Below the pieces are notes generated by a model, which worked only from the letters and a program-made list of their open reading frames with translations, did no database searches and was not told where the DNA came from. A program made the position numbers and the translations under genes. Source: a virus (lineage: Duplodnaviria; Caudoviricetes). Taken from it: 64,000 nucleotides of DNA. The stretch's first letter is position 1. The number at the start of each line of letters is the position of its first letter. Location of the stretch: positions 9,985-73,984 of IMG/VR virus record IMGVR_UViG_3300031555_002663; one strand, written 5' to 3'. Positions 22,466 through 64,000 of this stretch are shown one piece after another.

Positions 22466-23632
22466 ATGGCTGAACAACAATACTACTGTAAAAAATGTAA
22501 TAGAACCATGAGTGCTGATTAGTTCTATGGATCCTCCAACTTGGAGAAATATCCCACAGGCAAATTAGACACTTGTAAAAAATGCATTTCAATGCATGTT
22601 GATAACTGGAAGCCAGAAACTTATGTATGGATTTTGCAAGAATGCGATGTGCCATATGTTCCAGATGAATGGAATAAGTTATTAGAGTCTTACGCGCGCG
22701 ACCCTTCCAAGGTAACAGGTATGACTATTCTTGGCAGATATTTATCAAAAATGAAACTTAAACAATACAAAGAATACAGATGGAAAGATACTGAATTTTT
22801 GCAGGAGCTTGCCGATAATAAATTAGAACAAGCAATGAAGAGACAAGGTTACAGCGCTGCTGAAATTACTTTGGCTCAAGAGCAAAAACGAATTATTATT
22901 CCAGAAGAGGGATTTAAAGAACCTGTTTATGAAGAACCTGTTGTTGAAGATTACTTTGCACAACAAGCAGGTGGCGATGACATTGAAATTGATTTAACAG
23001 ATGAAGATAGAACTTATTTAAGATTAAAATGGGGTAAAGCTTACAAGCCAGAAGAATGGGTTAAACTTGAACAGCTTTATGAAGAAATGATGAGTTCTTA
23101 TGACGTGCAAGGTGCCGGACATATTGATACATTGAAGCTTGTTTGTAAAACATCTTTGAAGGCTAATCAGTTGATTGATATGGGTGATATCGAAGGATTC
23201 CAAAAGATGTCAAAAGTTTACGACAGTCTTATGAAGTCTGGTAAGTTTACTGCCGCTCAGAATAAAGCAGAGTCTGGCGAGTTCGTTGATGCGATCGGAC
23301 AGCTGGTTGAAATCTGCGAAAAAGAAGGATTCATTCCAAGATACTATATTGATAAACCAAATGATAAAGTTGATGAAACTCTTGCAGATATGAAGAGCTA
23401 TACAAAGACTTTGGTTTATGAAGAATTGAATCTTGGTAATCTTATTGAGCAATCTATTAAGACTATGATGAGTGAAGAGAATAAAGACGAAGATGAAGAT
23501 ATTGAAGAGGAATTGAGCTTGGAGGAAATTGATTCTTTGAAAGATGAAGACTTTGAAGAGCATCTTGATTTCCTTGAAGAAGAAGCTGAATTGGATGAAG
23601 AAATTCTAAAAAGAATGATGGGTGAAGATTAA
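22466..23632 (+). CDS. Zn-finger protein upstream of terL, candidate terminase small subunit (1 in-frame TAG)
   Basis: AGGAGG SD and ATG at 22466; CKKCNRTMSAD[TAG 22520]FYG...CKKC in frame with the tracked ORF 22541..23632. Confidence 0.75.
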
Positions 23633-25377
23633 TGGCTCTGCAAGATTTGTTAGACCTTAGTCAAAACCGTAAAAAAATTGGTTTATCCGAAGAGCGTATT
23701 CGAGCTATTATTCCTGCCGCTAGAGATTATATTGCTTTCTGGCGTGAATATCCCGACCTTTTTGTTGACTTTATGAAAGGCCCAGATAACAACTTTAATT
23801 TATTCTTTTACCAAAGAGTTTTTATGCGTGCCGCTATGCGTCACAAATATGTTTATGCAGTTTTCCCTCGTGCATATTCAAAATCATTCCTTGCGGTTAT
23901 GATTTTAATGATTAGATGTATTCTTTATCCTCGCTGCAAATTGTTTGTTACCTCAGGCGGTAAGGAACAAGCTGCAGGAATTATGAAAGAAAAAGTTAAA
24001 GAAATTTGCACTCTTATCCCCGCCTTTGAGCGAGAGATTGACTGGGGTCGAGGCAAATCTCTTGAAGGTAAGGACTATTGTAAATATGTATTTAAGAATG
24101 GTTCTTATTTCGATAATATTGCCGCCCGCGAATCTTCGCGTGGTAAACGTAGACATGGCGGTCTTATCGAGGAATGTGTTGGTGTTGATGGCACCATTCT
24201 TTCCGAAGTTATTTTACCTACTATGAACATTTCTCGTATGTGCATGGATGGAACTACTCAACCTGATGAAACTTTAAATAAATCTCAAATTTATGTTACA
24301 ACTGCAGGTTGGAAAAATACTTTCCCATATGAAAAGCTGATTCAATTACTTATTTGGCAAATTGTCCAGCCAGGTAAGGCAATGATTATGGGTGGTACTT
24401 ATAGAATTCCTATCTTAATGAAGTTGCTTGATAAGAACTTTATTAAAGACTTAAAGATGGACGGAACTTTCAATGAGAGCTCATTCGACCGTGAATATGA
24501 GTCTAAATGGTCTGGAACTGTTGAAGATGCATTCTTTAGTTCTGAAGTATTTGATAGAAATAGAATTCTTAATCAGCCTGAATATGAAGCTTCCGGTCGT
24601 TCAAGCAAAGCAGCATATTATATTCTTGCAGCCGACGTTGGACGTAAAGGTTGTGACACTGTTGTTTGTGTATTTAAGGTAACTCCTCAACCACAAGGTT
24701 CTGCAATTAAGAGTTTAGTAAATATTTACACTCTTACTGATGAACACTTTGAGGAACAGGCAATTAAATTAAAATCTTTATATTATAAATATAATGCCAG
24801 AAGAATTGTAATTGACGCAAATGGTCTTGGTGTTGGCTTGGTTGACTTTATGGTTAAACCTCAAGTTAATCCAGATACCCTTGAAGTTATGCCAGACTTT
24901 GGTGTCTATGGTGGCACACAAGATGATGCAGCTCAAGAGTATAAAAAGTATAAAACCAATTCTACAGAACAAGATGCACTTTATTTAATTAAAGCTAGCG
25001 CTCCGATTAATACCGAGGCTCATACGATCGCTCGTTCCAATTTGTCTTCTGGAAAAGTAAAATTCTTAATTGATGAACGTGTTGCTAAACAGAAGTTATT
25101 AAATACTAAAGTCGGTCAAAATATGAAACCTGAAGAAAGGGCAAATTATTTAAAACCATTCACCTTAACTTCTATATTAAAAGAGGAAATGATGAACCTT
25201 CGAGAAGAAAACGAAGGTGTAAATATTATCCTAAAGCAAGCAAATAGAGGTATTCGAAAAGATAAATTTTCAGCTTTTGAATACGGTTTATATTATATAA
25301 AACAAGAAGAAGAGTCTAAAAAGAAGCGTAAAAAATTTAATGCTAAAGAATGGGCATTTTATTCATCTGGTAGATAA
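23632..25377 (+). CDS. terL: terminase large subunit
   Basis: Walker A PRAYSKS, Walker B LIEE, nuclease motifs ADVGR, IDANGLG, KDKFSA. Confidence 0.9.
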   Translation: MALQDLLDLSQNRKKIGLSEERIRAIIPAARDYIAFWREYPDLFVDFMKGPDNNFNLFFYQRVFMRAAMRHKYVYAVFPRAYSKSFLAVMILMIRCILYPRCKLFVTSGGKEQAAGIMKEKVKEICTLIPAFEREIDWGRGKSLEGKDYCKYVFKNGSYFDNIAARESSRGKRRHGGLIEECVGVDGTILSEVILPTMNISRMCMDGTTQPDETLNKSQIYVTTAGWKNTFPYEKLIQLLIWQIVQPGKAMIMGGTYRIPILMKLLDKNFIKDLKMDGTFNESSFDREYESKWSGTVEDAFFSSEVFDRNRILNQPEYEASGRSSKAAYYILAADVGRKGCDTVVCVFKVTPQPQGSAIKSLVNIYTLTDEHFEEQAIKLKSLYYKYNARRIVIDANGLGVGLVDFMVKPQVNPDTLEVMPDFGVYGGTQDDAAQEYKKYKTNSTEQDALYLIKASAPINTEAHTIARSNLSSGKVKFLIDERVAKQKLLNTKVGQNMKPEERANYLKPFTLTSILKEEMMNLREENEGVNIILKQANRGIRKDKFSAFEYGLYYIKQEEESKKKRKKFNAKEWAFYSSGR

Positions 25378-25391
25378 GGAGGTTTGGTTGA

Positions 25392-25748
25392 ATGAGAGCT
25401 TCAAGAGGCGAAATTAAAATTGAAGAGATTTTAAAAGAAGCGGAATTGAATTTCAAAATGGAATATATTTTTCCTGACTTAAGAAGTCCAAATGGCCGAC
25501 CTTTAAGATTCGATTTTGTTATTTTTGATGACGATGGTAAAATTGATTTTATTATCGAGTATCAAGGAAAACAACATTATGAACCTAGCCAGAAGTTTGG
25601 TGGAAAGCGTGGCTTTTACCAACAGCAATATAATGACAATCAGAAGCGTAGATTTTGTGCGCTTCACGATTTCAAATTAATTGAAATCCCATACACCGAT
25701 GAAAACTTAATTTCTTATGATTATATAATGAAACTTGCTGGATATTAA
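25392..25748 (+). CDS. PD-(D/E)XK endonuclease (Vsr/DUF559-like)
   Basis: LRFDF...IEYQGKQHY...DNQKRRFC...LIEIPY. Confidence 0.75.
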   Translation: MRASRGEIKIEEILKEAELNFKMEYIFPDLRSPNGRPLRFDFVIFDDDGKIDFIIEYQGKQHYEPSQKFGGKRGFYQQQYNDNQKRRFCALHDFKLIEIPYTDENLISYDYIMKLAGY

Positions 25749-25762
25749 AAGGAGGTGGGATT

Positions 25763-27415
25763 TTGGATACTAAAATGACTCGCTCTGAAGAGGTTCATAG
25801 CAAAGGCTTCGACTTATTTGGTTCTACATATAGCCTTCAAGATGTTGAGGATCCACTTGCTTATCGAAAGATTAAGGTCGGTCCAAAAAGTCTTGATGAT
25901 GCAATTTTAAATCTTGGTAGCTATAGTGCAGATTTGCCGAAATACAATGGTATTAGTAAACGAATGATTTTGCAGGCTTTAGCTGTAAATGATTTAAAGG
26001 AACTTCGTAGAATTTCAAATTTGTTTTACAATGTAAGTGGTATGTATCAACGCGTATGTGATTATTTTGCATATCTTTATAGATACGATTGGTATGTTGT
26101 TCCAGAAGTATACGATGATGGAACAAAAGAAGAAAAGATTTTGAAAGATTTTTCAAAGATTTTAAACTATTTAGATAATTCTTATTTGAAGAAAATGTGC
26201 GGAGATATTGCCCTCGAAGTTATTAAGAATGGTTGCTATTATGGTTATATTGTTGACAGTCCAGATGGATTGGTTTTGCAGCAATTGCCAATTGATTTCT
26301 GCCGTTCAAGATATTATGTTGGGACAAATCCCGCAATCGAGTTTAACATGAGATTCTTCGACACTATTCCAAATGTGGCTTATAGAATGAAGGTTCTTAA
26401 ATTATTCCCAGAAGAGTTTGCAAAAGGTTATATGCTGTATAAGCAAGGTAAGCTTGTTGATACAGAAGATACCAGCAGACCTTTTGGAGCATGTATGACA
26501 AACTCTGGTTGGTATTTGTTAGATCCAAATAATACCGTTAAATTTAATTTCAAAAATAGCGATGTTCCAATTTTTGTAAATTCAATTCCAGCTATGTTGG
26601 ATTTGGATGCAGCCCAAGATTTAGATAGACGCAAACAAATGCAGAAACTTTTGAAAATTATTGTTCAGAAGTTACCTATGGATAAAAATGGTGATTTGAT
26701 TTTTGACGTTGATGAAGCTAGAGATATCCATAATAATGCAGTTGAAATGTTAAAGCGTGCTATTGGTGTTGACGTTTTAACTACTTTTACTGATGTTGAT
26801 TCTATTGACTTGTCTGATAAAAATACTACTGCAAGTCAAGACGATTTGGAAAAGGTAGAAAGAACGGTTTATAACAATTTAGGTATTTCTAAAAATATTT
26901 TTAATACTGATGGTAATTTATCTCTTGAAAAGTCCATTTTGAATGATGAATCTACTGTAAGAAATCTTTTATTGCAGTTTAATATGTTTATGGATAGAGT
27001 TATCAAGAAAAAGAATACTAATATTAAAAAGTATAATTTCAAGATTTATTTCTTGGAAACCACACAGTATAATTATCAAGCATTATCCAAGCTTTATAAA
27101 GAGCAAACTCAGCTTGGCTATTCTAAAATGTTACCACAGATTGCTCTTGGACATTCACAAAGTTTCATTCTTAATACTGCTCATTTTGAAAATGAAGTAT
27201 TGCATTTAAGTGAAATTATGATTCCTCCATTAATGAGTTCTACTTTAAGTAGTGAAGATATTTTGGGTAAAAAAGATTCAAGTGCAAGTTCTAATTCTCA
27301 AAATAATTCAGGAACGAAGAAAAACTCTACGGAATCAAAGACGGTCGGGCGTCCTGAAAAGGCCGATGATCAGAAAAGTGAAAAAACAATTTAGAATAAA
27401 GAATCAATGAGCTGA
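25763..27415 (+). CDS. portal protein (1 in-frame TAG)
   Basis: About 550 aa between terL and protease; reads through TAG 27392 to TGA 27413-15, which abuts the next SD. Confidence 0.8.
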
Positions 27416-27425
27416 GGAGGATATT

Positions 27426-29015
27426 ATGAAACATACAAGCATTAAATTAGATACGCCTTGTGAGTTTATTAATGTAACTCCTGTCAACCCTTTAATTTCT
27501 AAGTGTCAGATTAAGGTTTGTTATGTTGGTGAAGAACCTAATCGCAACAGAAGTATTATTACGAAAGAAGTGGCTACCCAAATGGCGAATAGCTTGCCAG
27601 GTAGCCCAATTGTTGGTTTTTATAACGAAGCTAAAGAAGATTTCGAAGAGCACAATCGTGTAATTGATATCTCTAATGGCGAGTTTAAAATTAAAGACAC
27701 TACCAGACCTTATGGTTTCGTTGATATGAATGCAAAGGTTTGGTTCCAGAAATTTTTAGACGATGGCGTAAATGAACATGAGTATCTAATGACAGAAGGG
27801 TACATTTGGACAGGTCAATATCCAGAAAGTCAAAGAATTATTGACAAAGGAAATAACCAGTCTATGGAACTTTCTGAAAATTATTTAGATGCGACATGGA
27901 CAAAAGATGATAATGGAAAACCATAGTTTTTTATTATTAATGAGGCAATAGTCTCAAAACTTTGTATTTTAGGTGAGGACTGCGAACCTTGTTTCGAAGG
28001 CTCCCAAATTGCAAAGATTGAGTTTTCTTTCGATGATAGCTTTAAGAATCAACTTTTTGCTATGATGAATGAACTTAAAGAATATTTAAAAGAAGGAGGA
28101 GCCAAAGAAGTGTTTACAAGATATGCAGTGGAAATCGGTGACGCTTTATGGAGTGCACTTTATAGTCACATCGAAAAGACTTATCCCGATGCACAGAACT
28201 GCTACTGCTCTGTTTACCGCATTGAAGGAATCTTTGAGGATAACGGACAGAAGTTTGCTGTTCTTCAGAGTCGCTCTGACATGAAGTATTATCGCTTAAA
28301 TTTCGCTCTTACTGAAGATACTGGTTTTGTTCCTTCCGACACCTTAATCGAAGTTACTAAGTCCTATACTCCTGCCGAAGAGCCTCAGTTTGCTCTTGAC
28401 GCTGTTGAAGAGTTTGAGGCTGAGTACGCTAATAAGAAAAAGGAAGAAGAAGAGGGCAAAGATGGTGAAAACGCCAATAACAATTCTGAAGATAATTCAG
28501 AAGGTGGCGAAGAAGAAAAGTGTCCTAAGTGCGGCAAGCCTCTTGCAGAGTGCGAGTGCGACGATGAAGATAACCATGAAGACGGACCTCAGAAGACCTA
28601 TAATCTTGAAGAGGTTGTTGAATATACCGAGCTAAAGGCTCAGTATGAAGAATTAGAAGCAAAGTTTAGTGCTCTCGAAACTGAGCATGAAAACCTTAAG
28701 TCTGAAGTCGAACCTTTAAAGGCTTTCAAATTAGAAGCTGAAAAGAAAGATAAGCAGGCTATGATTGATCAGTTCTATATGCTCTCTGACGAGGATAAGG
28801 CTGACGTAATTGCTAATATTGACACTTACTCAGTGGATGACATTGAGGCAAAGCTTTCTATTATTTGTGTTCGCAACAAGGTGAGTTTCGACCTTGACGA
28901 AGATAATAAGAACAGCGGAAATCCTACCGTTTATAATTTGAATAATAACGATAGTGATGAAGCAAATGTTCCAGCATGGGTAAAATCTTTGCGTGAAACC
29001 GCAAAGTCCATGTAA
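27426..29015 (+). CDS. prohead protease/scaffold fusion (1 in-frame TAG)
   Basis: ORFs 27426 and 28062 are in frame across TAG 27924; the joining segment carries SKLCILGEDCEPCFEG; acidic coiled-coil C-half. Confidence 0.85.
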
Positions 29016-29047
29016 AATAAAAAAACTATTAAGGAGGAAAATCTAAG

Positions 29048-29887
29048 ATGATGACAGATTTTTTAAAGAGTCGTATTACATCTCAGGCTAAGTATCCTGA
29101 AGTAGGATTTGGTCAGGTCGAGCCAAACCATTTGTCTGCTCAGTACACTGGTCAGATTTATGCTCAGTTGCCTGCCGATCCTGATATTGAGATTCTTGAA
29201 CAGGGTCAGTTTGTAAAGTACGACTATGCCAATGGCCTCGTTAATTTTACTGGCGAAGGCGAATGGATGCTTGTTTATAATGAAATTAAACTTTATAGAG
29301 ATTTCCAGAGAGATTGCGAATTCGCAATGTTGAAGGGTAACTATCAAGCTCGTGTTTACAGCCCACTTGATGGTACTGTAATGCAGGAGATGTATGGTCC
29401 TACTCGTTTCTTACAGGGTAAGAGAGAGGCTTATGACAATGCTACTGGCACTCTCCAGACTCTTACTGGCGAGTTGGCCTATGATGAAGTAAATAAGAAG
29501 TGGGTTCAGGCTGATGAGGATCATCCTGCTGCTGATTATTCTGTTGCTTCTACTGTTCATGATTATTATGAACTTGATGATGTAAATGCTCCTGATCTTG
29601 ATGAAGTTTCTAAGAGACTCTTCATGAAGCTCCGTGATTACAAAGAAAAGATGATGCCTGCTGGCACCACTATGGTTCCTCGTGTATTTAAGACTAACGT
29701 TGGTGACCATTATACTACTAATATGATTAATGCAACTCCTGAAGAGCTCACTCTCGGTGCAACTTTGAAGGTTGGCGAGAAGGGTATTCTTGAACCAGGT
29801 TCTGATGAAAAGATGACTTGGCAGGTAGTTAAGGTTTATACAATGCCCGACCATCAGCGTGGCGTTAAGATCATGCGTATCGCGTAA
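29048..29887 (+). CDS. capsid-associated structural protein (decoration-like)
   Basis: Position between scaffold and MCP; strong-expression codon bias. Confidence 0.6.
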   Translation: MMTDFLKSRITSQAKYPEVGFGQVEPNHLSAQYTGQIYAQLPADPDIEILEQGQFVKYDYANGLVNFTGEGEWMLVYNEIKLYRDFQRDCEFAMLKGNYQARVYSPLDGTVMQEMYGPTRFLQGKREAYDNATGTLQTLTGELAYDEVNKKWVQADEDHPAADYSVASTVHDYYELDDVNAPDLDEVSKRLFMKLRDYKEKMMPAGTTMVPRVFKTNVGDHYTTNMINATPEELTLGATLKVGEKGILEPGSDEKMTWQVVKVYTMPDHQRGVKIMRIA

Positions 29888-29904
29888 GAAAGGAGAGAAG
29901 AGTA

Positions 29905-31002
29905 ATGTTAGATAGAGCTAATTTAGTTGCTTTAATGAAGCAAGTTGCTAAGGCTGATCCTTCTGCTCCAGTTTCTTATAGCTATGGTGATCAGAATTTC
30001 AGCTATGACCAGTTGAATGAAACTCTCCGTAAGGAGCTTAATGAATACGCTGGTACTTATTCTCTATATCGTGAGAATAAAAATTTGATTTTCTCTTTAA
30101 TCGAAGAGACAATTAACGAAATCCTTCCTAAGAAGGTTGAGCAGGCTTATATGCAGTTTGCTGAGACTAAGACCTTCAAGCAGGGCGACAAGCCTATTTT
30201 CCGTCGTAAGAGAGATGCACGTTCTCGTGCTAAGCAGTTCGTAACTCGCGTTGGACTTGCTGGTATTTATGAAGTCTTTAAGCTCGGTCCTTCTGAGGCT
30301 GAGAGCTTCGAAGTCCGCACCTCTGCTATCGGCGGAGCTGCTCAGATTGGCTTCGAAGAGTTCCTTGATGGTCGTGTTGACTTCGCTGAAGTTACCGCTA
30401 TCGTTATGGAAGGTATGGACGAACTTATCTTTAAGGAAGTCGGCCATGCTCTTAAGGCTGCAGTAAATCAGCTTCCTCCTGCAAATATCGTTGTTACTAC
30501 TGGTTTCGACGAAGAAGAATTTGATCGTCTTCTTGTTATTGCTTCTGCTTATGGCGAGCCTTCTATTTACTGCACTTACGAGTTCGCAGTTAAGATGGTT
30601 CCTTCTGAGGGCTGGAGATATACCGAGTCCATGAAGAATGAGCTTTGGAACACTGGTCATCTTGCTACTTATAAGGGCCGCAAGGTTATCATTCTTCCTC
30701 AGGGTCTTGAAGACGAGTCCAATACTCGCAAAGTAATTGATCCTGGTTATTGCTATATTATTCCTGCCGGTGCTGATAGTAAGCCTGTTAAGATTGCTTT
30801 TGAGGGTGGCGCTATTGTTGACGAATATGTTAACAAGGATCGTAGCCGTGAGATTCAGGTTTATGAAAAGGTTGGCGTAACTGCTTTGTTGGCTAACAAC
30901 ATTTGTGCTTATGTTGACTTGGCTCTTGCTGGTCAGTATGACCTTCAGGGTTCTAAGTGGGATAGTACTGCATACATTGATATGACCTATCCTAACGCTT
31001 AA
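29905..31002 (+). CDS. major capsid protein
   Basis: 365 aa, strongest codon bias in the module, follows scaffold, terminator downstream. Confidence 0.8.
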   Translation: MLDRANLVALMKQVAKADPSAPVSYSYGDQNFSYDQLNETLRKELNEYAGTYSLYRENKNLIFSLIEETINEILPKKVEQAYMQFAETKTFKQGDKPIFRRKRDARSRAKQFVTRVGLAGIYEVFKLGPSEAESFEVRTSAIGGAAQIGFEEFLDGRVDFAEVTAIVMEGMDELIFKEVGHALKAAVNQLPPANIVVTTGFDEEEFDRLLVIASAYGEPSIYCTYEFAVKMVPSEGWRYTESMKNELWNTGHLATYKGRKVIILPQGLEDESNTRKVIDPGYCYIIPAGADSKPVKIAFEGGAIVDEYVNKDRSREIQVYEKVGVTALLANNICAYVDLALAGQYDLQGSKWDSTAYIDMTYPNA

Positions 31003-31030
31003 TTAATAACCGAATAATTAATATAATTAG

Positions 31031-31066: not shown

Positions 31067-31093
31067 TATTTTTGTGATAAAGGAGATATTAAA

Positions 31094-31706: not shown

Positions 31707-32282
31707 TTGGGAACTAAATTTGCAACAGTATATAACCGCTTTCTTGGAAAAATTACTGATGATATGTATCTAGAATTAACTCCAGAAGATACAATTAAGG
31801 ATTTGCAAAATCTTTTAGTTGATGCAATTCCTGGATTTGAATTTCCACGAATTAATCTTTATGATTATGATATTTCGGTTGTAAAGATTGCCGAAGATGA
31901 AATCGTAGAAGAAGATTTTGTTTTGGGTGTAGTTTGGGAAGATGATTCTGGGGAATTATCAGAAGTTCCTAACGTTCTAGTCGATCGTTCTAGTTTTAAT
32001 GTTGAATTAAGCTCTGAAGAAGTTAACATCTTAGCACTGTTAATGAAACAGGCTTGGGTTCAACGTCAAGTCACTTCTATTGAGAATACAAGAATGAAAT
32101 ATAGTGGAGCTGATTTTAAAATGACTTCACAAGCTAATCACTTGGCTAAATTGCTTTCATTATTGACAGAGTCTCGTAGAGATTCTTTCCATATGCAAAG
32201 ACTTTATAAAAGGAGAAAACTTTCCAAAGATGGTTATTCATCTAACTGGTCAGTTTTACGAGAAACAAGTGCTATTAACTAA
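31707..32282 (+). CDS. putative head-tail adaptor
   Basis: TTG start; YSGADFKMTSQANHL; position after capsid genes. Confidence 0.55.
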   Translation: MGTKFATVYNRFLGKITDDMYLELTPEDTIKDLQNLLVDAIPGFEFPRINLYDYDISVVKIAEDEIVEEDFVLGVVWEDDSGELSEVPNVLVDRSSFNVELSSEEVNILALLMKQAWVQRQVTSIENTRMKYSGADFKMTSQANHLAKLLSLLTESRRDSFHMQRLYKRRKLSKDGYSSNWSVLRETSAIN

Positions 32283-32583
32283 ATATGATTTTTTATTCTC
32301 AGCTAATGACATTGATAAAAATGTTAAACGCCTAACTAATCAACTTTGGAAATTAATTCCAATGAGAGAAAATGATGAAGATTGGCGTAAACAATTGGAT
32401 ACAGTTACTTTAGAAGTTGTGGGTCTGAATGAAATTTTCCTTTCATACCCACAATTTTTATAGCTGTTAAGTAAACTAGAAGGATTGCAACATACTGAAG
32501 AAATTGAATTTGATTTGTATCGAAAAACTGTTTTTGAAGCTATAAATTTACTTCAGGAGATTAACCGTGTCACGAGGGTATGA
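32269..32583 (+). CDS. hypothetical neck-region protein (1 in-frame TAG)
   Basis: Reads through TAG 32461 for 40 more codons to TGA, overlapping the next start. Confidence 0.7.
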
Positions 32584-33690: not shown

Positions 33691-34278
33691 ATGAAGATTA
33701 ATAAAGATCCGATGCCTAAATCTTCATTCCTATCTATGGAAAAAGATATGCATCTTATTACCAATATGATGCTAAGAAATCCTCGATTAAAAAAGTTGTT
33801 GCATCATACTACACCAAGATGTTTAGAGATGCCTGCTTTGACTGAGGATCAAACCTATGATCTTATTGGTAAAAATATTAAATTAATTCCTAAACTTTAT
33901 GTCGATAATTCAGTATTGAATTATATTATTGTTAGCTTTGATAATTTTACACCAAATGCAACAAATCCAGAGTTTAGAGATAATATTATTGAATTTGACA
34001 TTATTTGTCATTTTGACCAGTGGGGCCTAAAAGATTTCCAATTGCGTCCATATAAAATTGCAGCGGAAATTGATTCAATGTTTAATGAAAAACATTTAAC
34101 TGGAATCGGTACTTTAAAATTCTTAGGTGCGAATCAAATAATTCTTACTGACGAATACGCTGGTTTATGTTTAATGTACTCTGCTATTCATGGCGAAGAA
34201 GACAAGATTGATATGCTCAATCCTCGTGATCAAGAGCAGTTTGAAAAAGACTTTAAAGAATTAATGGGCCAAAAATGA
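33691..34278 (+). CDS. putative tail terminator/completion protein
   Basis: IEFDIICH...RPYKIAAEIDSMFN; upstream of tail tube gene. Confidence 0.55.
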   Translation: MKINKDPMPKSSFLSMEKDMHLITNMMLRNPRLKKLLHHTTPRCLEMPALTEDQTYDLIGKNIKLIPKLYVDNSVLNYIIVSFDNFTPNATNPEFRDNIIEFDIICHFDQWGLKDFQLRPYKIAAEIDSMFNEKHLTGIGTLKFLGANQIILTDEYAGLCLMYSAIHGEEDKIDMLNPRDQEQFEKDFKELMGQK

Positions 34279-35003
34279 ATGATATTCGATTGGCGCTAAT
34301 GTGCGGGTCGGACATCCCTATTCCTGAGATTCAAGCGGCCGTGCATTAGCCGAAAATGAAAGAAATTGCTCTTATTGGAGAAGCAGATTTTTTTGTAGCA
34401 ATACAATGCTTAAACGTAGACAAAAACCTTTTACGTCAGGACAAAACACTTTTATAGAATACAAGTAATTTTTAGATATTTATGACGATAATGTCTGAGA
34501 AGGAGACAAAAGATAAGAAATTAGCAACTCAGCAATTACTACAACTTTTATTTCCTAATCATAACATTATGTTTACCCCTCGATCAATTCTTTTACAAGG
34601 AAAAGAGAATTCTTCAACAATTGATGAATCAAATTTCGAGTTTTTGCAAGAAATTTTAAAACAAGTCTTTTGTGTTTCTAATAAAAATAATCAGCAGGCA
34701 GGTTTTAATCCAGCAAATGAAAAAGCTCGTGAGATTGCTGAAAAGTTAATGAGAGGTAGACAAAGAGTTGCTGAACAAAACGGTTCAGCTAATGCTAGTA
34801 TATTCAGCCAATATCTTTCTATATTAACTGTTGGACTTTCATCCATGTCTCTGCAAGAATTAATGGAACTAACCATGTATTAGTTATATGATTTAGTGGA
34901 AAGATATCAGCTTTATATTAGTTGGGACATTGATATTCGTTCTCGTTTGGCTGGAGCCAAGCCAGATGATCGTCCCGATAATTGGATGAAAAACATTCAT
35001 TAA
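34275..35003 (+). CDS. tail-region protein, chaperone-like (4 in-frame TAG)
   Basis: ATGA overlap with previous gene; TAG at 34347, 34455, 34473, 34881; continuous 242-aa frame to TAA. Confidence 0.8.
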
Positions 35004-35025: not shown

Positions 35026-36054
35026 ATGAAATTCGGTGTTCGCGAAATTTGTGACGTTGTTTTGAAGGCAAAGGCTCCTCAGAAGATTGGTAATAAGATT
35101 TTCTATAAGAACGAGCCAGTTCTTTATTTCGACACTTTAAAAACTTCTACTATGGAAGGCGCTGCTACCACTGTATATGCACAGGGTGGTCGTGGTAACT
35201 CTCGTCTCGTTGCATGGGAAGGTGAGAGAACTGTAACTTTCACTATGGAGGACGCTTTGATTTCTCCAGAAGGCTTTATGATTCTTTCTGGTGCTGGTCT
35301 TATTGAGGCCGCTGAAAATAAGCCTGTTTATCAGCACGTAACTGAAACTGTTGATGGTTCTAAGATTTCTAGAACTCAGGAAGGTATTACTATTAAGTTG
35401 AGCAAAGAGCCTTATTTGCCAATTATGACTGATGACTCTGTTGGCGTTGAAGGTAACTATGCTTATGTAATGCTAGTTAAGAATGGTGAAATCGTTTCTG
35501 AGCCTTACATTCCTGTTCATGGTGATGTTACCAAGGTTGAAGAGGGTAGCGAAGTTTACTATCTCTTGAACGTAGCTGGACATGAAAACTATGATACTCT
35601 TGAGACTGATGCTGGTTCTGAAGATCAGTATGATGTTGATGCAGACCTTACTGCTGTTGGTGCTTTTGATAGCGTAATCGTTGATTATTATGTAAAACAC
35701 ATTGGTGGTGCAATGCAGATCGAAATTACTCCTGACAAGTTCGGTGGTAACTACTATCTCGAAGCTTCTACTTTGTTCCGTGATCAGAACGGTGTTGACA
35801 TGCCTGCAGAATTTATCATTCCTAACTGCAAGATTCAGTCTAACTTTACATTTACTATGGCTTCTTCTGGCGATCCATCCACTTTCACTTTCACTATGGA
35901 TGCATTCCCAGATTATACAAGATTTGACCATAGTAAGAAGGTTCTTGCTGCAATTCAGATTATTAAGGACGTAACTGGCGAAGATCTCTATCGTCTTGAT
36001 ACTATCCATAATTTGACTGATGAAGGTAAGAAACACGACATTATTCTTGGTTAA
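35026..36054 (+). CDS. major tail (tube) protein
   Basis: 342 aa, strong codon bias, FTFTMASSGDPSTFTFTMD, terminator downstream. Confidence 0.75.
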   Translation: MKFGVREICDVVLKAKAPQKIGNKIFYKNEPVLYFDTLKTSTMEGAATTVYAQGGRGNSRLVAWEGERTVTFTMEDALISPEGFMILSGAGLIEAAENKPVYQHVTETVDGSKISRTQEGITIKLSKEPYLPIMTDDSVGVEGNYAYVMLVKNGEIVSEPYIPVHGDVTKVEEGSEVYYLLNVAGHENYDTLETDAGSEDQYDVDADLTAVGAFDSVIVDYYVKHIGGAMQIEITPDKFGGNYYLEASTLFRDQNGVDMPAEFIIPNCKIQSNFTFTMASSGDPSTFTFTMDAFPDYTRFDHSKKVLAAIQIIKDVTGEDLYRLDTIHNLTDEGKKHDIILG

Positions 36055-36076
36055 TAGAGAATAAATATATAAATTT

Positions 36077-36110
36077 AGGGGAGAGATAGAAATATCTCTC
36101 CCCTTATTTT
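36077..36110 (+). terminator. intrinsic terminator
   Basis: AGGGGAGAGATA-GAAA-TATCTCTCCCCT plus T tract. Confidence 0.85.
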
Positions 36111-36132
36111 TGTTTAAAGGAGGAAAAGGCGT

Positions 36133-37176
36133 ATGGATTTAGTGATTCCAAATATTGCTGCAGAAGCAGAACAGTTAGGAATTCAAGAAATGTCTGAAAA
36201 TGTTGTTTTAGAACATAAAGGAGATTTAGAGTTTTTAAAACAAGCGGCTTTAGATTATAAGAGAATTGTTGACGATTTAGATGGTAGATTAAAATTATTT
36301 TCTCAAACGCTAAAAAGACAATCTCAAATACGACGTCAAGTTGGAAAAACAAATGTCCAACAGGTCGATGAATATGTTAAAAATAAAGAAAAAGTCCATG
36401 AATTTTTAATTAGCGATATTCCAAAGCAATTATATCATGCCAGTTTTGAATTTCAAAATAAATTAAATGAATTTTTAGGTCAGCAAGTAAAGATGATATT
36501 TGTAGTTGAAGGAGCTTCTGGACCAGAACTTTATGAAATGACTTCTGAAGAAATATTACGATTTGACTATAGTAGTTCGAATCAATTGTCTGCTCGTTAT
36601 AAAGTTACAAGTGATGATCTTGGAAAGTCATTAAAACATTTAGAAATTACTGAATCAAATTTGAATTTTAGTTTGACAGGATTAAAAACTACATATTCAG
36701 AAGTACTTGCAAGATATCGTATCAGCAGAAGTAAAAATTTAAGATTGCTCATGTGGAAGCCTGGTAATTCTTGGAAGAAAATGACTATTTCTGCTGAGGG
36801 CGATATTAATGAGGCTTATGCTGCTTTTGTATTTTTAAATAAAGTGTCTCCATCATTTAAAAAAAGTATGGAGTATAATATTGGAGATTTTGCTCAAGGC
36901 GTAGCAGCGGTAGATAATATGTCAGGTTTATTAAAAGGTGACGTTAGTGTTGGAAATATTGAGTATGGTATTAAATCTGCAGATGCATCAGCTCTTGGTT
37001 TAAAACAGATGGAAAAATTGGCGAATCAAATTCTTATGGAAGATTTTGGTCCAGATTCTTTGCAAAAAATTCAACAAAAATTAGCTTCAAGAGCGAAAAC
37101 CCGTAACCATATTTCTGATTTAGTTAATAACACCACAGATGAACTTTTAGAAATTATTGATCCAAGAGTGCAATAA
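36133..37176 (+). CDS. hypothetical protein inserted in the tail module
   Basis: 347 aa between a terminator and a sigmaA promoter. Confidence 0.75.
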   Translation: MDLVIPNIAAEAEQLGIQEMSENVVLEHKGDLEFLKQAALDYKRIVDDLDGRLKLFSQTLKRQSQIRRQVGKTNVQQVDEYVKNKEKVHEFLISDIPKQLYHASFEFQNKLNEFLGQQVKMIFVVEGASGPELYEMTSEEILRFDYSSSNQLSARYKVTSDDLGKSLKHLEITESNLNFSLTGLKTTYSEVLARYRISRSKNLRLLMWKPGNSWKKMTISAEGDINEAYAAFVFLNKVSPSFKKSMEYNIGDFAQGVAAVDNMSGLLKGDVSVGNIEYGIKSADASALGLKQMEKLANQILMEDFGPDSLQKIQQKLASRAKTRNHISDLVNNTTDELLEIIDPRVQ

Positions 37177-54925: not shown

Positions 54926-54928
54926 TTT

Positions 54929-57900
54929 ATGAAAAGAAATCCCATTAATAATAAAGAATTTCTTTATGAATTAAGTCAATTCCGTCAAAAAGAAATCTAT
55001 GCAAAAATAATCGCTTTAGATTTTGAAGAAAATCCTTTAGAGCAGATTGAAGGAAAAGTAACAGGAGGATCCCTCAATATTGATGGATCCTCTGCTGTTA
55101 GAAGAACTTGTAACTTATCTTTAGTTGCAAAAGATGTTAATATTTCTGATTTCTATTGGAGCGTTAGTAATAAATTTACTTTAGAGATTGGTGTAAAAAA
55201 TCAAATTAATAAAGAATATCCTGAAATTATTTGGTTTTCTCAGGGCATTTATGTAATTACTTCTTTTAATGTTGCATTAGCAAATAATAGTTACAATATT
55301 TCTATTAGCGGAAAAGATAAAATGTGTTTGCTAAATGGCGATATTGGAGGAAGTCTTTACGCTTCTATTGATTTTGGAAAAATTGACACTTATAGCGATG
55401 CATATTCTATGGTGGAATTTGAAGATTTAACTCAATATGTAGCCAATAAATATTATATTTATCAAGGTGGAGAATATGTCATTTCTACTGCTGAATATGA
55501 TCCAACTAAAACATACTATGCCAAAGATGTTGTTTTAGAGCAAGAAGATTTGAAATTAAAAGATATTATCCGTGAAGCTGTACACGTTTACGGCAAAGAG
55601 ATGTACCATAATATTATTATTAATGACTTAGATGATTATGGTTTAGAGCTTTTAGAATATAGAGGAGAAAATCCTTTATATATGCTTTATAATGAAGACG
55701 CTGCGGTTTATGAGAATATGGTTTTAGATGAAGATTTTCCAATTTATCTTGAAATCTCTCCAGAAAATTATAATTATGAACCGCTTGAAAATCTTCCTAT
55801 GGAAACTTTCTATGCCAATCCAGAAAATTATTGGGTTAAAAGTGAAGAGTCAGAGGATTTTTATTATCAAGTAAGTCAATACGATGAAGAATTGACATAC
55901 TATACTCGATCTTATATTGCACCGATTATTAATAGCACATCTAAGCAAATTAAGGACACTCCTGTTTTTAATAATGCTATTAATGATTTTAATGATTCAC
56001 GCACTATTTTTTATCTCAACTCAAATATCTTAGATGAAAAAACTGGAAAAAGAGATGAAGCAAGATGGTCCGCAACTAAAATAGAAGCAGGTAACGCGGC
56101 AGGCTATCGTACGACAGATCTTACTTATGCAGGAGAACTAATCTCTTCTATTGGGGAATCATTAACTTCTATTTTAGACAAAATTAAAAATATGCTTGGG
56201 CCTTTTGAATACTTTTATGATAAAGAAGGTCATTTTGTTTTTCAAGCTAAAAAGATTTATGCAAATGAGTCTTGGAATAGTTTGGTTGAAGCAGATGATG
56301 AGGTTTTTGCAAGAGATAATATAGAAGAGTCTCCATACTCTTATAGCTTTGAAGATGTAAATCTTATTCAAAGATTTCAAAATGCTCCTGCAATAAATCA
56401 AATTAAAAATGATTATTCTATTTGGGGAGTTCGCAAAGGAGTTAGCGGAGCAGAAATACCTATTCATGCTCGCTATGCAATTCATGAAAAACCAATTTAT
56501 TATAGAGGTTATGATGGATTGGTTTATTGCCAAAATAAAGATTTCGTCGATCACTATTTTGAACTAAAAAAGCAAGAATTGTTGGCAACTATTAATGATC
56601 GCTTGGATAATTATGAACCTCAATATCCTATTATAGAAGGCTTAAAACAACCAGTGAAATTACCAGACGGTTCTTGGTCTGAGGGCTGGTGGGATATCCG
56701 AGATTGGCACGATTATTATGTAGCTTTAACGAATGAAGAACCAAACTATAGTATGAAAGAGTACAGTAAAAATAATGCATCTGGATGCGTATCTTATATA
56801 GAAGCTTTTCCAAATAATAGCCCATATTATGAAAGCGGCAATTCAGATAGATACGTTTGGTTAATTATTTATAATCCTAGAACAAATCGTATTAATATTC
56901 AACATGGTTCTGGTAACCCTACTGCAAGAGGCTCTTGGCGTTTTAGATATCAATCAGAATATAGAGAAGATGGAAGTTTATTTACTTATTATGTAGATAC
57001 TGCAGGAAATAAGCATGAATCAGGATATCTTTCAGCGTCAGGATATTATGATGATAGTAGTGATATGGCAAGAGAAGCTATTGCGGCAAAGAATAATATT
57101 CCAGTTGAAGGAGTAACTTGGTTTATTCCTCCTTATAGTGGTTGTAATGATAAGCATACTTATCTTGAATTCTTAGAAGGAGATATTAAACATTCTGGTA
57201 ACTTAGTTTATTTTTACAATCCTAATTTCCCAGGAACATCTTCTCTTCAAGAGGCTATTGAAAAAGAGCTTGAAGAAGAGTATGAAAAAATAATTAGTTC
57301 TTATACTTTCGTTGAAGTAGATTGGAGAGAAATTATTTATCAAATGGCAAAAGATTATTTTGCTCATAATCAAGATGAAGATTTCTTATTAAGAATTCGT
57401 GAAAATAATATGATGTTAGATGGCGTTTCTAGTTATTATCCTACTGGAGAAACTGGATACGAAATGTTTTATACAGATATCCAAGGTTTTTGGCGTCAAC
57501 TATATGATCCAAATCCTGTTATTAGTTATGATTCAGAGGGTGGATACTATAGTGAGAAGAAACAATATGAAGAGGATAATCTTACTTATAAAATTGTAAA
57601 TGAATGGAATCCATTTACGCCATTAGAAACTTTTTCTTGTGATTATTTTTTAAAACCTTCAGAAGGTTAGATTGCAGACGAAAAAGATTATTCATCAACA
57701 AAATATTATTGGCATAAAAATGTAGTAGAGGCTCCAGATTTATTAAATTTCTGGATTGATTTTTATGAAGGCGATGCACCTCTTTCACAATACTCTATCG
57801 GCAGTATTGGAAATAGGCCGAAAGTCGTAAATAATAATAAAGTTTCTTCCATATACTTTAGGAACACTCCGCAAATTATTTTCTATGAAGATGGGGAGTA

Positions 57901-58225
57901 TGATCCTTTAAATATTAGATCTGGTTATACTTATGCCAATTTAGTTGATATGGGAGATTTATTTACAATAAGCTCTCAAGGAAAAAGCGCACAAGATGAA
58001 TTGAATGAATTGTTTAACACTCATGCATATTGCACCGAGACTGTGACAATGACTTCAGTGCCGATTTATTATTTAGAACCAAATACCTTGATATATATCC
58101 ACAATGAAGAAAGTGGAATTAATGGTAAATTTTAGCTGACAAGACTAAGCATTCCATTAACTTATAATGGTATGATGTCGATTAATGCAACTAAAATTAA
58201 AGATAAAATTTATTTAGGAGGTTAA
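54929..58225 (+). CDS. tail hub/baseplate-like protein, 1098 aa (2 in-frame TAG)
   Basis: Continuous frame through TAG 57668 and 58133 to TAA 58223-25, which abuts the next SD; C-terminal PIYYLEPNTLIYI...GKF[Q]LTRLSIPL. Confidence 0.8.
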
Positions 58226-58230
58226 GGAGT

Positions 58231-58590: not shown

Positions 58591-58594
58591 TTAA

Positions 58595-61500
58595 ATGAGT
58601 TTTTATGGTAGCGTTTCAAACGCAGGAAAAACAACTCTAACTTTTGATAAAGTTTATCCTAATCGCCAAGCGATGGAAACTTATTGTAAAGAAGATGGAG
58701 TTTTTATAGGACGATGCGTTCTTATTGAATATGATGATAATACTTTTGCTTATGTTCGTGGTTATACTACAGACTATCCAGCAAAAGATATTTTATATCA
58801 TTTATATGCTGACGTTAATGGAGACATTCCATTAAAGGTTGGTGAAAATTTCACAGTCGATGATGAAGGAAAAGTTAACGAAGAAGAAGGTTATTCTATT
58901 CAAATTGGTTCTTTGGTTAGAGCCAGATATGTTGATAGATTTGGAAATATCGCAGATCCAAATACTTTTTTCTTTGTTTGTGATGACACAGAACTTAATG
59001 GTATTGCAAAATTCAGAGTTGTTAACACTTCTGAACAATACATTACTGACTACGATTTAAACTATAAGATTGATAAAGATTATAGTGAAGATCATGGTTA
59101 TGTCTTTACTTCTGGATGGGATTCAACTGTATGGCAAAAAATAATTGAAGGCGGCGTTATTAAGTATAGAATGATTGCTTCACTAAATTCTGATTTGCCT
59201 ACTTTTAAAGTCAGAGCAGAAGCTCCTTCTATTGATGCTGTAGCTCCTCACTTTGGAGAAGATAGTACCAATATGACTTATACTTTACATATGCCTACAA
59301 TGTGGGGATTTAAAGTAAAAAATATTGAAGATGCTGTAGAAGGTGAAACCCTTTATTCTGATGAAAAAGTTTTTTATGGAGATAGAAAACCTAAACCTCC
59401 TATTAATAAAAACGATAAAGAAGATGAATCAGAAGATGAAGAAGATGCAATTGGCCCAGAAATAAACCCAGACTTGTTGGGTGTTGAATATGATGGAGCG
59501 ATTTTCTTCAATAAGGCGGGTTTCAATAAATAGCATCGATACATGAGCGATGCAGAAAATAAAATTTCTATTCTTCCTACTGGACATTCAGTAAATTATC
59601 CAGATTATTATGTTCATGATGGAGAAAGTCATAAAGAATTAGCTCCAGATTTACAAGAACTTACAATTCAATTACCTGCAATTGGTAATGCTATTGCAGA
59701 ATTATGGGATGTAATGTATGGAGATAAAGACGCAAATGGTAAATATTTACGTTCCAGAAATGATAATATTGAATGGAATGATACTACTGGTATTCGTATG
59801 ATTACTGTAGATCCTGACACTGGCGGTTTTAAGTATTTACCAGACAAAACAGAAAGTTTAGCGGGCGCTATTAATTCTTTACATGATTTAATGGGTATGA
59901 TTATTGTATCCCCAGTTGAAGGTCAAAGTAAAGAAGAGGCTTTAGAATCTGCAATTTCAAGTAGAATTTATTATGGCCCTTATGGAGAAAATGAAAATCA
60001 AAACGGATTTTTCTTCAAAGATACAGAATATAAATTTGAACCTTTTGCAACTATTCCAGAGCTTAATGCAAAATATGAAGCAGAAGGTAAACCTGTTCCA
60101 TTTCCAGATTTTGATGCAGAAAATTTTGTTGGTTCAAGAACTTATTATGATTTAATTCAATTCTTAGCTAACACTTATTATACTTATGTTGATAATAATT
60201 TCTATTTGGATGCTAGTAATGTTCCAACTCCTGATACTTTATATTATTTATTAGGTGAGCCAAAAACTGTTCTTTTAAAAGAATGGCATGGCGAAATAGA
60301 AGATGAAGAAACAGGAGAAACTGTTGTTGAAGATACTTATTATAAATCTAACGGTAATTATATTAAAGACACAAGTGATGTAACTGATGAAACAAAAGAT
60401 TATTATTCTATTGTTGCAAAAAAAGAAACTTATCCAGAGAATCATGAAGAAACTAAAATTCCAAGATTAATTTGGAATCCTAAATTACCTCTTTATTGCC
60501 CTAATGATCCAGGCTCAGAAAATACTATTGAAAATGCTGAAGAAGGCATTGATTGGAGTGTATTAATTTCTGGTATTGATGGCAATGGAGTGCCTTGGGT
60601 TGAAAATGTAGTTGCAGTTAATAAAAATGGATATTTTTATCTTGCTTATGAAGAAGTTGAAGGAGAAGAAGACCCTATTGCTTCTACTTTAATTCAAGTA
60701 CAACCAACAGACGAATGGGTAGAAAATAGAAAATATTATAAAATCCCTATTTATGCAATTCGCGAGATGATCGATGAAACTGGTGCAAAAGTTAGAATTC
60801 CATATTTTATTAAATCTGATGGTACTTTAGTTTCATTTGAAGATGCCGTAGACGCAGGCGAAAATGGTGGAAAAGACGACAATCTCTTCCCTTATGGAGA
60901 TTATCGTATTAATATGATTGAATTTATCCCAGAACTTTATTTTTCTGAGGCTACTTTCAATATTGAATTAGAAGATGGAAGTACAAAAACTGAAACTGGT
61001 TATCAATGCTTGTTAAGTAGAGATGCTCTTGATGATTCTGTAATTTATTACACTATTGAAGCAACTCCTTTAACTGGCGAGGGTGATATTACAGTTGTAC
61101 CTCCAGAAGAAGGGGAAACACCATCTGAGCCTTCTGAGCCATCTGAAGAAATTTTATTAACTCACTATTATAAACCAGGTGTATATTATTTTAAAAATTC
61201 TACTAATGATTATATTTTAAGCACTTCTAAATCTTTTGATTCTAGCTTAACATATTATTTATTAACAGATAAAAATAATGTGCTTTTAGAAAAAGATCCT
61301 ACAACAAATCTTTTTAAAATTGAACCTGAAACGGCAGATTTCTATGAGCCAAATAAATATTATTATTTTAGTAATGAATTTGGTTCTAATTTAATGGATA
61401 CTGGAACTGTTATGAAAACTCCAGAGCATCCAGATGTTCATCCTGAATATGTGAGAACTGAAATTGCAGAAGATGGAACAGAAAAGAAACTGGTTTACTT

Positions 61501-62641
61501 TATTCCTCAAGAGGCATATGTTGTTGAAGATACCGCAGGTTTCTTAAACAAAGGTATGGTTTGGGATAAAAATGTTGAGCCCCCAGCAACAGTAACTCTT
61601 GGAGGCCGTTATACTGAACCTAAGTGGACAGAGCTTAAAGGTTTTTCAAGAGCTTTAAATACTGTCAATGGATTGATTTTGCAATTAAATAAATATTTTA
61701 AGTTTGATGACCAATATGTAAGAGATAATTCTACTGTTCAAGGATGTCTAAATCAGCTGAAAGATATTATTAATCTTACTGATGATTTAAATCCTGGTAA
61801 TATTATGATTATCGATGATTATGGTAGAATGTCTGGAGGTCTTTTAGAAGCTGATGGTTGGATTGCTCCAACAATTGAGACCAAGGCAAAAAATACTTCT
61901 TTGGTTTTAACTCATGCATTGCCTGAAGTAGCAGATGATGAGTTAACAGAAATCGGTGGCTTAAAAATTGATAAAAATGGTCACGTTAGATCTTTAGGCT
62001 CAGGTTTAACAATAGATTCTCTAAATTCAACCGTAACTGGCTTAAGTGGTAAGATAGATACATTAAATGGAGATGCTTCAACCGCTGGCTCTGTAGCTAA
62101 CACTGTTGCTACTGAAATTGCAAAAATTGTTAATGAAAATAACAATGGAAGTATTGATACATTAAATGAAATTGCTGCCTGGATTATTAACGATACCACT
62201 GGCGCAGCAAATATGGCGAATGATATCGCAGCTCTTGAAGCACTTGTTGGTGATACTGCAGTTGCTACCCAGATTAGCACTGCTATCGATACTGCTTTAA
62301 AAACTGATGGAGTAGATAAATATGCTTTTGCATCAGAATTAACTAATATTGGCGCTCGAGTAAAAACTTTAGAAGATACTATTTCAGCTGAAAAGATTGC
62401 TCAGTGGGATTCTGCAGAAGCTAATGTTCAATCAGACTGGAATGAAGCCGATGCAACTTCTGACGCATTTATTTTAAATAAGCCAGATTTATCCGCTTAT
62501 ATTACTAATACACAAGAGTTTGTTTATGACTATAATGGAACTCAAACAAATATGACAATTCAAGCTTTATTAACCTATATTGCAGGTTTAGAAGCTAGAA
62601 TTAAAGTATTAGAAGATGCTGCGACAACTCCTACTACTTAA
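58595..62641 (+). CDS. tail fibre/receptor-binding-like protein, 1348 aa (1 in-frame TAG)
   Basis: ORFs 58595 and 59543 are in frame across TAG 59531; C-terminal trimeric coiled-coil-like segments. Confidence 0.75.
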
Positions 62642-62647
62642 TAAATT

Positions 62648-62682
62648 AAGACTCGGTCTTGAGTAAAGGCCGAGTCTTTTTA
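62648..62682 (+). terminator. intrinsic terminator
   Basis: AAGACTCGGTCTT-GAGT-AAAGGCCGAGTCTT plus T tract. Confidence 0.8.
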
Positions 62683-62731
62683 ATTTATATAAATCTTTTT
62701 TTATATTAAATAGAGAAAAGGAGGTTAACAG

Positions 62732-64000
62732 ATGGCTAATTATGTAAAGTTTTTTCGCGGAACTCCTAAAGCATATGCGAACACTATAAAAAATAGTGAT
62801 ACTTTATATTTCGTTTCCGAAAGTGATAGCAATGTTGGTTCATTATATCTGGGCTCTAAGCTAATCTCTGGTGAAATTAATTCTCTAACTGAGTTAGAAG
62901 ATATTTTACTTTCTGAGCAGCTTTCCGATGGTTCAATTTTAGTATATGATGAATCTCAATCTTCTTGGGTAAATAAAACCATTGTTGAAGCAGTTGGTTT
63001 AATGACACCTGCAACTGCTGAAGCGGCAGGTGGTTATGGACTCGTTCCAGCTCCTGGAAAGGGTGAACAAAACTATTTCTTACGTGGAGATGGTGCTTGG
63101 GCACCAATTGAAGGCTCTGGAGGAGAAACTGTTTCAAGTAACACTCAAGTTTATGAAGTTATTACTAATGCAAATGAATTACATGATGATGCAATTTCTC
63201 GTATTGTTAATGGTGCTGAACTATTTAATGGAGATATTGCAATCGTTAAAGATTTAATTGCTGGAGATAAATAGCAGTATACCGCCTATGTTTATAATGG
63301 CACAAAATGGGTAGCCATGGATGGAAATTATAGAGCTGACAATGTTTATTTTGATGAAGATTTTATTTTCACAAAAGCTATTGGTACTGTTTCTATCCCT
63401 GATACTGGTAATGTGACTGTTTCTGCAGCCGGCAAAAATCTACAAGAGTTTTTTGCAGGATTATTTGCAGAAGAAGAGTATCCTACCACACCATCTACTA
63501 GTGCAACTTTAGGTTCTAATAATATTGGAACTAAAGAAGTTGGTACTAAAATTGGAATTCAATATTCCTTTACTACTACTGCTGGCAATTATAAATTCGG
63601 ACCTTCTGATAATGGCGTTACTTGGAGCGATTATAAAGCTACTTTTAACGGCGAAACTCTAACTGGAAAGTCTGGAACTTTTACTACAGTTCAAGTAACA
63701 GATGATACTAATTTAAGTATTACTGGTTCTGTTGAACAAAGCGCAGGCGCAATTCCATTAACTAATTTAGGCAATGAATATAGTGATGCACAAATTCAAA
63801 AGAAATCTTGGACTAATTTAACTAAAGGCACTTTAAGTGGTTATAGAGCTTGGTTCTGTGGCTATAAGAATGGCGATAATGCATTAACCGATCCAACAGC
63901 AATTACAGGAGCAGAAATTCGTGCTCTTGGAACTTCAAAAAATGGATCTTGGGCTTCTTCTATGAATATTTCTAAGATGAAACAAATGTATTTTGCCGCT
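62732..64000 (+). CDS. tail fibre-like protein, partial, runs off the window (1 in-frame TAG)
   Basis: Frame stays open for about 240 codons past TAG 63272 (YTAYVYNGTKWVAMDGNY...) to the window end. Confidence 0.8.

Follow-up and report, generated by a model that had tools for sequence, protein, structure and literature searches.

The DNA analyzed here is a 64,000-nucleotide stretch (the window) that makes up bases 9985-73984 of one linear 73,984-bp virus record, IMGVR_UViG_3300031555_002663, and its genes are organized in two arms. The left arm, from 1 to 22420, holds small early and middle genes chiefly on the minus strand, and the late module, at window positions 22466-64000, carries 24 plus-strand late open reading frames (ORFs), the final one extending past the window end. 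Encoded in the late module are a phrog_3314 protein, the large terminase, the portal, head-module proteins, a tape measure of 2678 amino acids (aa), and several tail proteins of >1000 aa. Our subject is the codon TAG, which interrupts many of these late genes. The evidence gathered below indicates that TAG is almost certainly a sense codon in this phage, and comparison with related sequences points to glutamine (Gln) as the amino acid inserted, a reading to which we assign a probability of about 0.87.

The initial annotation, made from the letters of the window alone, had listed 16 in-frame TAGs splitting 10 genes, and every coordinate, reading frame, and gene count proved correct. All 16 of the 16 TAGs lie in frame within 10 plus-strand late ORFs that each end in TAA or TGA, with 1, 1, 1, 1, 4, 2, 2, 2, 1, and 1 TAGs per gene in order (Table 1), and no further in-frame TAG was present among the 24 late ORFs. 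At 16 of 13,584 codons (0.12%), TAG in the late module would amount to about 3% of Gln codons. Long open flanks surround these interruptions even though TAA and TGA together make up 6.5% of off-frame codons here, which shows that they are not due to chance: 7 of the 16 positions are flanked on each side by ≥100 open codons (for example, 914/184, 312/1035, and 171/362). Re-calling genes with table 15, a check proposed in the initial annotation, increased coding density in the late module from 0.931 under code 11 to 0.963 under code 15, and treating TGA or TAA as sense produced no meaningful merging of ORFs in either arm of the window.

Reading through TAG also restores gene starts and homology that the standard code removes. 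It had been claimed that Shine-Dalgarno-led starts reappear in this way, and AGGAGG-type sites do precede the restored starts, including a AAAGGAGG Shine-Dalgarno site at the start of the gene for the 388-aa protein (22466). For the 1673-aa tail gene, a Shine-Dalgarno sequence lies before 46047/46053 and none lies before the code-11 start at 46449; the true start is probably the ATG at 46053. PHROG profile matches run across TAGs in the 388-aa, 529-aa, and 242-aa proteins and the tape measure, and since the phrog_34405 match begins at residue 1 of the tape measure, the 131 residues that precede its code-11 start belong to the protein. Pfam searches with the late proteins returned nothing useful.

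Table 1. Late-module genes of the window and the TAG codons within them (positions are those of the window)
Gene or protein	Coordinates	Strand	In-frame TAG (codon)	Profile match or remark
388-aa late protein	22466..23632	+	22520 (19)	phrog_3314; PHROG match 1-331 crosses TAG
Large terminase	23632..25377	+	none	Matches PHROG terminase families; used for placing the phage
Portal, 550 aa	25763..27415	+	27392 (544)	phrog_2739, E value 3e-84
529-aa head-module protein	27426..29015	+	27924 (167)	phrog_3313; PHROG match 8-512 crosses TAG
Two head genes	29048..31002	+	none	Probably abundant proteins
117-aa protein	32230..32583	+	32461 (78)	
242-aa protein	34275..35003	+	34347, 34455, 34473, 34881	phrog_4051; PHROG match 1-241
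Virion structural protein and neighboring gene	35026..37176	+	none	phrog_2729 (structural protein)
Tape measure, 2678 aa	37891..45927	+	38203, 38215 (105, 109)	phrog_34405 match 1-744
Tail protein, about 1673 aa	46047..51068	+	46092, 46347	
1098-aa tail protein	54929..58225	+	57668, 58133	phrog_32343 and phrog_1887; relatives align 1-1095
1348-aa tail protein	58595..62641	+	59531 (313)	
Tail protein, at least 422 aa	62732..64000	+	63272 (181)	phrog_35541 match 166-338 crosses TAG; runs off the window

A codon that has become sense should no longer terminate genes, and the initial annotation had stated that credible genes end in TAA or TGA and never in TAG. The 23 complete genes of the late module end in TAA (20) or TGA (3), with none ending in TAG. 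Among 63 minus-strand ORFs of the left arm, 46 end in TAA, 13 in TGA, and 4 in TAG; the TAG-ended four have lengths of 48 to 87 aa, and the starts of two fall within TGGTATAAT promoter boxes. Given their small size and these starts, we rejected all four as genes and treat them as spurious exceptions, leaving no credible gene in the 74-kb contig that ends in TAG.

To ask which amino acid is inserted, we drew related loci from IMG/VR and aligned the late proteins of the window to them, with X placed at each TAG. Relatives carry TAG 79 times and Gln (CAA/CAG) 74 times over all window TAG columns, followed by Ile (35), glutamate (Glu; 28), Asp (24), and tyrosine (Tyr; 24). Summed BLOSUM62 scores over these columns are best for Gln, at 17.3 versus 7.8 for Glu, and a second, blind run over all ORFs again placed Gln first (14 versus -1). 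Five columns (27392, 32461, 34347, 34473, and 34881) are almost purely Gln/TAG, and no column is conserved Glu. At the portal column, relatives carry Gln 23 times, TAG 6, Ala 5, and Lys once, and the conserved portal tail KTI[Q/TAG]NKESMS extends beyond TAG 27392. Column 32461 contains TAG 18, Gln 5, and Ile 3. The clearest interchange is found in the 242-aa protein, where TAG and Gln replace one another in the motifs H[Q/TAG]PxIKEIA, NF[Q/TAG]IFMTIM, and MY[Q/TAG]LYDLVERY, with column contents of Gln 11/TAG 11, Gln 4/TAG 17, and Gln 16/TAG 6; the three motifs that the initial annotation had quoted are all present, and the homologue of this protein in phage phAss-1 has been annotated as three fragments. 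Column 27924 is mixed (Lys 11, Gln 6, TAG 6, Glu 6), and the second tape-measure column, 38215, is variable.

The reverse comparison gives the same answer. Where a relative has TAG, the facing residue in the window is Gln in 141 of 614 columns, compared to a background of 3.7%, and when the comparison is restricted to close relatives this fraction rises to 50 to 70%. On a terminase tree, the closest neighbors of the window phage are TAG-to-Gln types. Homologue alignment, which the initial annotation had recommended for identifying the residue, thus favors its choice of Gln through TAG/Gln interchange, the top BLOSUM62 score, and agreement of the blind run. The six TAG columns in tail genes (46092, 46347, 57668, 58133, 59531, and 63272) were uninformative about the residue.

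Relatives with larger genome fragments suggest how TAG could be decoded. Their tRNA arrays contain 10 to 39 tRNAs, and a tRNA-CUA is found in four TAG-to-Gln relatives (G002, G007, G009, and G010). The suppressors of G002 and G007, the two that were aligned, have the acceptor strand UGCGGUG and G73 in common with a family tRNA-Gln(UUG), and a weak 1-72 pair together with G73 can be read from the sequences of all four. ARAGORN labels any tRNA with a CUA anticodon "Pyl," and pyrrolysine was set aside as a candidate in view of the Gln columns and of the likeness of the aligned suppressors to tRNA-Gln. The tRNA-CUA genes of G009 (L103:1492-1584) and G010 (L105:9888-9975) are 93 and 88 nucleotides long, with a long extra arm like that of class II tRNAs; TAG columns in both genomes are Gln despite these class II-like suppressors.

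In the genome of relative G001, about 50 kb separates the tRNA array from the head genes downstream of it, and by analogy an array in the window phage would fall beyond the left end of the contig. The initial annotation had placed a suppressor tRNA elsewhere in the genome and proposed a search for tRNA-CUA, a release factor, or a synthetase. That search came up empty for the 74-kb record, which CheckV estimates to be 38% complete: no tRNA was detected by ARAGORN with or without introns or at a lowered threshold, and neither an RF-1 domain nor a GlnRS/GluRS catalytic domain is present. Rfam at gathering thresholds likewise gave no match in the window, and the RF-1 domain is absent also from five large relatives. 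At 38% completeness, absences on the 74-kb contig carry little weight.

Several observations nonetheless weigh against decoding of TAG as Gln in this phage. No tRNA, release factor, or GlnRS that could reveal its decoder lies on the 74-kb record, and two TAG-to-Gln relatives show that the expected suppressor is not always visible: G006 (the contig of L014; 176,574 bp, 92% complete) has no detectable tRNA at all, so that its suppressor must be noncanonical or otherwise supplied, and G008 has ten or so tRNAs, none of them CUA. Columns 22520 (TAG 8, Glu 7, Gln 5) and 38203 (Glu 8, Gln 4, Asp 3, TAG 2) lean slightly to Glu over Gln. For the six tail columns, the only homologues are 27 to 47% identical and have Ile, Asp, or Tyr there. 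Alignments to distant homologues cover both 46092 and 46347, with Ile and Asp; at columns 57668 and 58133, homologues that are 33 to 47% identical have Tyr and Ile; homologues also align across 59531, a variable column (Asp 7, Arg 3); and 63272 is Tyr in 10 of 10 homologues aligned across the TAG. No closer homologues of the tail genes were found, and a scan of viral contigs with the 1673-aa protein gave nothing. The tail columns therefore show readthrough but say nothing on Gln. Finally, belonging to this family is not enough to identify the residue, since TAG seems to be read as Glu, tryptophan (Trp), or Tyr in related lineages.

The strongest alternative is that TAG is sense but is read as Glu or a different amino acid, for instance Tyr or Trp. 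Such a reading would draw on the 31 family contigs (some of them duplicate records) whose TAGs face invariant Glu, on other contigs whose TAGs face Trp or Tyr, on the Glu lean of columns 22520 and 38203, and on Tyr in all or most distant homologues at 57668 and 63272. We nevertheless consider it unlikely. The nearly pure Gln/TAG columns have no conserved-Glu counterpart, the summed scores favor Gln over Glu, the relatives with TAG at identical columns are Gln-type, as are the closest terminase neighbors, and the Tyr and Ile columns derive solely from the 33 to 47%-identity homologues.

Less probable still is the possibility that TAG is a true stop, with the 10 genes either split and decaying or completed by low-level programmed readthrough via host components. 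A fragment without a suppressor tRNA could be read this way, and TAGs 27392 and 58133 lie ≤30 codons from the gene end, where truncation is perhaps tolerable. However, the frames are interrupted 16 times by TAG and never by TAA or TGA, homology continues on both sides of each TAG, and dozens of independent contigs have TAG or Gln at the same columns. A phage cannot do without its portal, tape measure, and tail proteins, and TAG is unused as a gene end throughout the contig. Sequencing or assembly error, or a chimeric contig, is hardly credible: the arms do differ in GC (0.40 to 0.47 at 6-18 kb versus about 0.30 to 0.40 across the late module), but independently assembled sequences from many samples have kept the TAGs at homologous positions, and errors would not yield one stop codon only, in frame only.

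Where TAG occurs is also informative. The left arm is compatible with the standard code, and no early gene convincingly contains an in-frame TAG; left-arm ORFs that merge under TAG readthrough are short, overlapping, or antisense, and none was accepted. Within the late module, 9 of the 16 window TAGs lie in the first 110 codons of a gene, versus 19% expected (p = 0.001), and TAG is biased toward 5' ends compared to CAA/CAG (Fisher p = 0.003), a bias calculated from 16 codons that are clustered within genes. Across relatives, TAG columns number about 1.1 per 100 aa for the two head genes at 29048..31002 versus 8 to 17 in adjacent genes, and about 0.6 for the pair at 35026..37176, with 17 for the 242-aa protein (34275-35003). 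This amounts to an approximately 20-fold range in TAG density among late genes across the family. The TAG-poor head and tail genes, which have no TAG here and nearly none in most relatives, probably encode abundant proteins.

In a published model of late-gene gating, early genes use the standard code of the host, and late genes are completed once a phage suppressor accumulates (bioRxiv 10.1101/2021.08.26.457843). The confinement of TAG to the late module, its position near 5' ends, and its absence from TAG-poor genes fit this model. UAG in the late module of the window phage would be a rare sense codon decoded as Gln by a phage-encoded amber suppressor tRNA(CUA) derived from tRNA-Gln, and this tRNA would be located in a large tRNA array in the portion of the genome that the contig lacks. 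Early genes would be translated by an unmodified, standard-code host, and 10 of the 24 late genes would reach full length only after suppression is established, with UAG acting as a translational gate on virion production. The suppressor in this phage, the standard code of its host, and the timing role are what we infer from these patterns. If so, the window phage would be a sparsely recoded addition to the phages that gate late translation by a reassigned stop.

One anticodon change in tRNA-Gln is enough to create such a decoder, as in supE of Escherichia coli, where tRNA-Gln with a CUA anticodon decodes UAG as Gln in competition with RF1. Unlike supE, the suppressor proposed for the window phage would be carried by the virus and be part of its normal coding.

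Reading of TAG as Gln by phages (code 15) is an established phenomenon with proteomic validation (PMC9523058). The initial annotation had pointed to Lak and crAss-like phages as precedents, and this likeness holds for mechanism and fails for virus type. Shared with these code-15 phages are a concentration of in-frame TAG in structural and late genes, early genes that the standard code can read, the loss of TAG as a terminator, and suppressor tRNA-CUA genes, here present in relatives of the window phage. In contrast, the window phage, whose tape measure has 2678 aa, is a large siphovirus related to phAss-1, EF1/VRE9, and E3 rather than a podovirus-like member of the Crassvirales or a Lak megaphage; its TAGs are sparse, and no release factor was found in the fragment or the five large relatives. 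No hallmark relationship to Crassvirales or Lak was found, the best cultured terminase matches being the VRE9/EF1 and E3 siphoviruses.

Nearest in GenBank to the window terminase are those of Enterococcus phages VRE9/EF1 and Geobacillus phage E3, at 50% identity, with phAss-1 at 43%. Viral contigs of near-complete relatives measure about 133 to 177 kb and include a 168,960-bp genome with terminal repeats. By sequence, the source is a fragment of a large gut or rumen siphovirus near phAss-1 and Schiekvirus-like large siphoviruses, and because cultured relatives infect Firmicutes, its host is likely to belong to this phylum as well. The phage phAss-1 and its proposed genus Phassvirus (OQ749652) comprise siphoviruses of about 135 kb with tRNA arrays that include tRNA-CUA, in which TAG is Gln in terminase, portal, tape measure, and tail genes; phAss-1 itself decodes TAG as Gln and encodes three suppressor tRNAs, and divergent TAG-recoded relatives beside Enterococcus EF1-like phages were already noted in the same work (PMC10607447). 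The window phage falls outside this genus, because its proteins are only 31 to 43% identical to those of phAss-1, and, unlike in phAss-1, its terminase gene lacks TAG.

Another described group, the Agate clade, consists of about 127-kb cattle and pig gut phages that mix TGA-recoded, TAG-recoded, and standard-code members, and only Gln was assigned to TAG and Trp to TGA in its description (bioRxiv 10.1101/2021.08.26.457843). By that description, it resembles the family of the window phage in genome size, likely habitat, and rapid code switching among close relatives, and the two may be the same.

With TAG-to-Gln already known in phages, the surprise lies in the relatives. When the majority aligned residue was taken at each in-frame stop in a blind inference over all fetched loci, TAG was assigned to Gln in 40 loci plus the window, to Glu in 31 loci (some duplicated between collections; 25 distinct terminase sequences), to Trp in 2 loci, and to Tyr in 1. 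TGA was assigned to Trp in 25 loci, including L025, L026, L029, L035, L100, and L101 (G005). As a noise floor, apparent TAA hits numbered 6 to 10 per locus and pointed to no consistent residue. The same split among codes was reproduced with the terminases of two cultured standard-code phages as references. The codes are interleaved on a tree of 168 terminase sequences, which requires about 19 Fitch changes, a number inflated by the labeling of short contigs without observed stops as standard code.

The apparent Glu assignment is illustrated by L033 (L033:3733-21479), a distant relative whose TAGs align with Glu, not Gln. This locus has 81 in-frame TAGs in 5,728 late-gene codons, and these fall on columns that are invariant Glu in >30 relatives; a GAG-to-TAG artifact is argued against by the fact that GAG is still used in frame. 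Other loci in which heavily used in-frame TAGs face invariant Glu are L115 (G012:46015-67733), L138, L174, L179, L183, L186, L190, L206, L211, L215, L219-L221, L224, L262, L270, L276, L280, and L189, the last with in-frame TAG at 131 positions. One Glu-type genome, G012 (133 kb, 93% complete), carries a tRNA-CUA on the minus strand at L143:5092-5168 that matches the tRNA-Glu(UUC) of the same genome in acceptor stem, U73, and D-arm. No tRNA-CUA was found in the array of a second Glu-type relative, G013, and BLAST with the G012 suppressor returned nothing in five other records.

The remaining assignments come from fewer sequences. At the two Trp loci, L159 (Ga0310691_10000132:74143-95096) and L232 (IMGVR_UViG_3300009871_000027), TAG faces Trp at 14 of 22 and 12 of 22 positions, compared to a background of 1%. 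The Tyr assignment is that of L131 (IMGVR_UViG_3300035498_000629), a contig of 6,167 bp in which TAG faces Tyr 6 times and Phe 3 times out of 10, and it faces Tyr/Phe also in comparison with cultured-phage terminases; no close relative of L131 was found among viral contigs. An insert of about 570 bp interrupts the terminase of this contig. For TGA, one recoded lineage includes the closest relatives of the window at the 27426 gene, with Trp at 38 of 71 window columns, and G005 has a lone tRNA-UCA (G005:82481-82551) that is closest to tRNA-Trp.

It seems probable from these alignments that UAG has been captured by different amino acids across lineages of one gut/rumen siphovirus family, in which UGA has also been captured by Trp. 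We regard UAG-to-Glu, UAG-to-Trp, and UAG-to-Tyr as candidate phage codes, the Tyr code being based on one short contig. Full-text literature searches turned up no phage described as decoding UAG as Glu, Trp, or Tyr, and these apparent lineages would be new natural genetic codes in viruses. If they are real, table 15 applied to every TAG-recoded phage mistranslates the Glu, Trp, and Tyr lineages, and the family would offer a natural system for studying repeated reassignment of a freed stop codon. For the family of the window phage, the residue at TAG cannot be presumed to be Gln. The contig analyzed here requires table 15, without which ten virion genes, including those for the portal and the tape measure, are called as fragments.

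In the left arm, two small minus-strand ORFs, 7861-8124 and 8223-8369, begin with MWYN (ATG TGG TAT AAT), which coincides with an extended -10 box downstream of TTGACA. Both are spurious ORFs sitting on strong early promoters.

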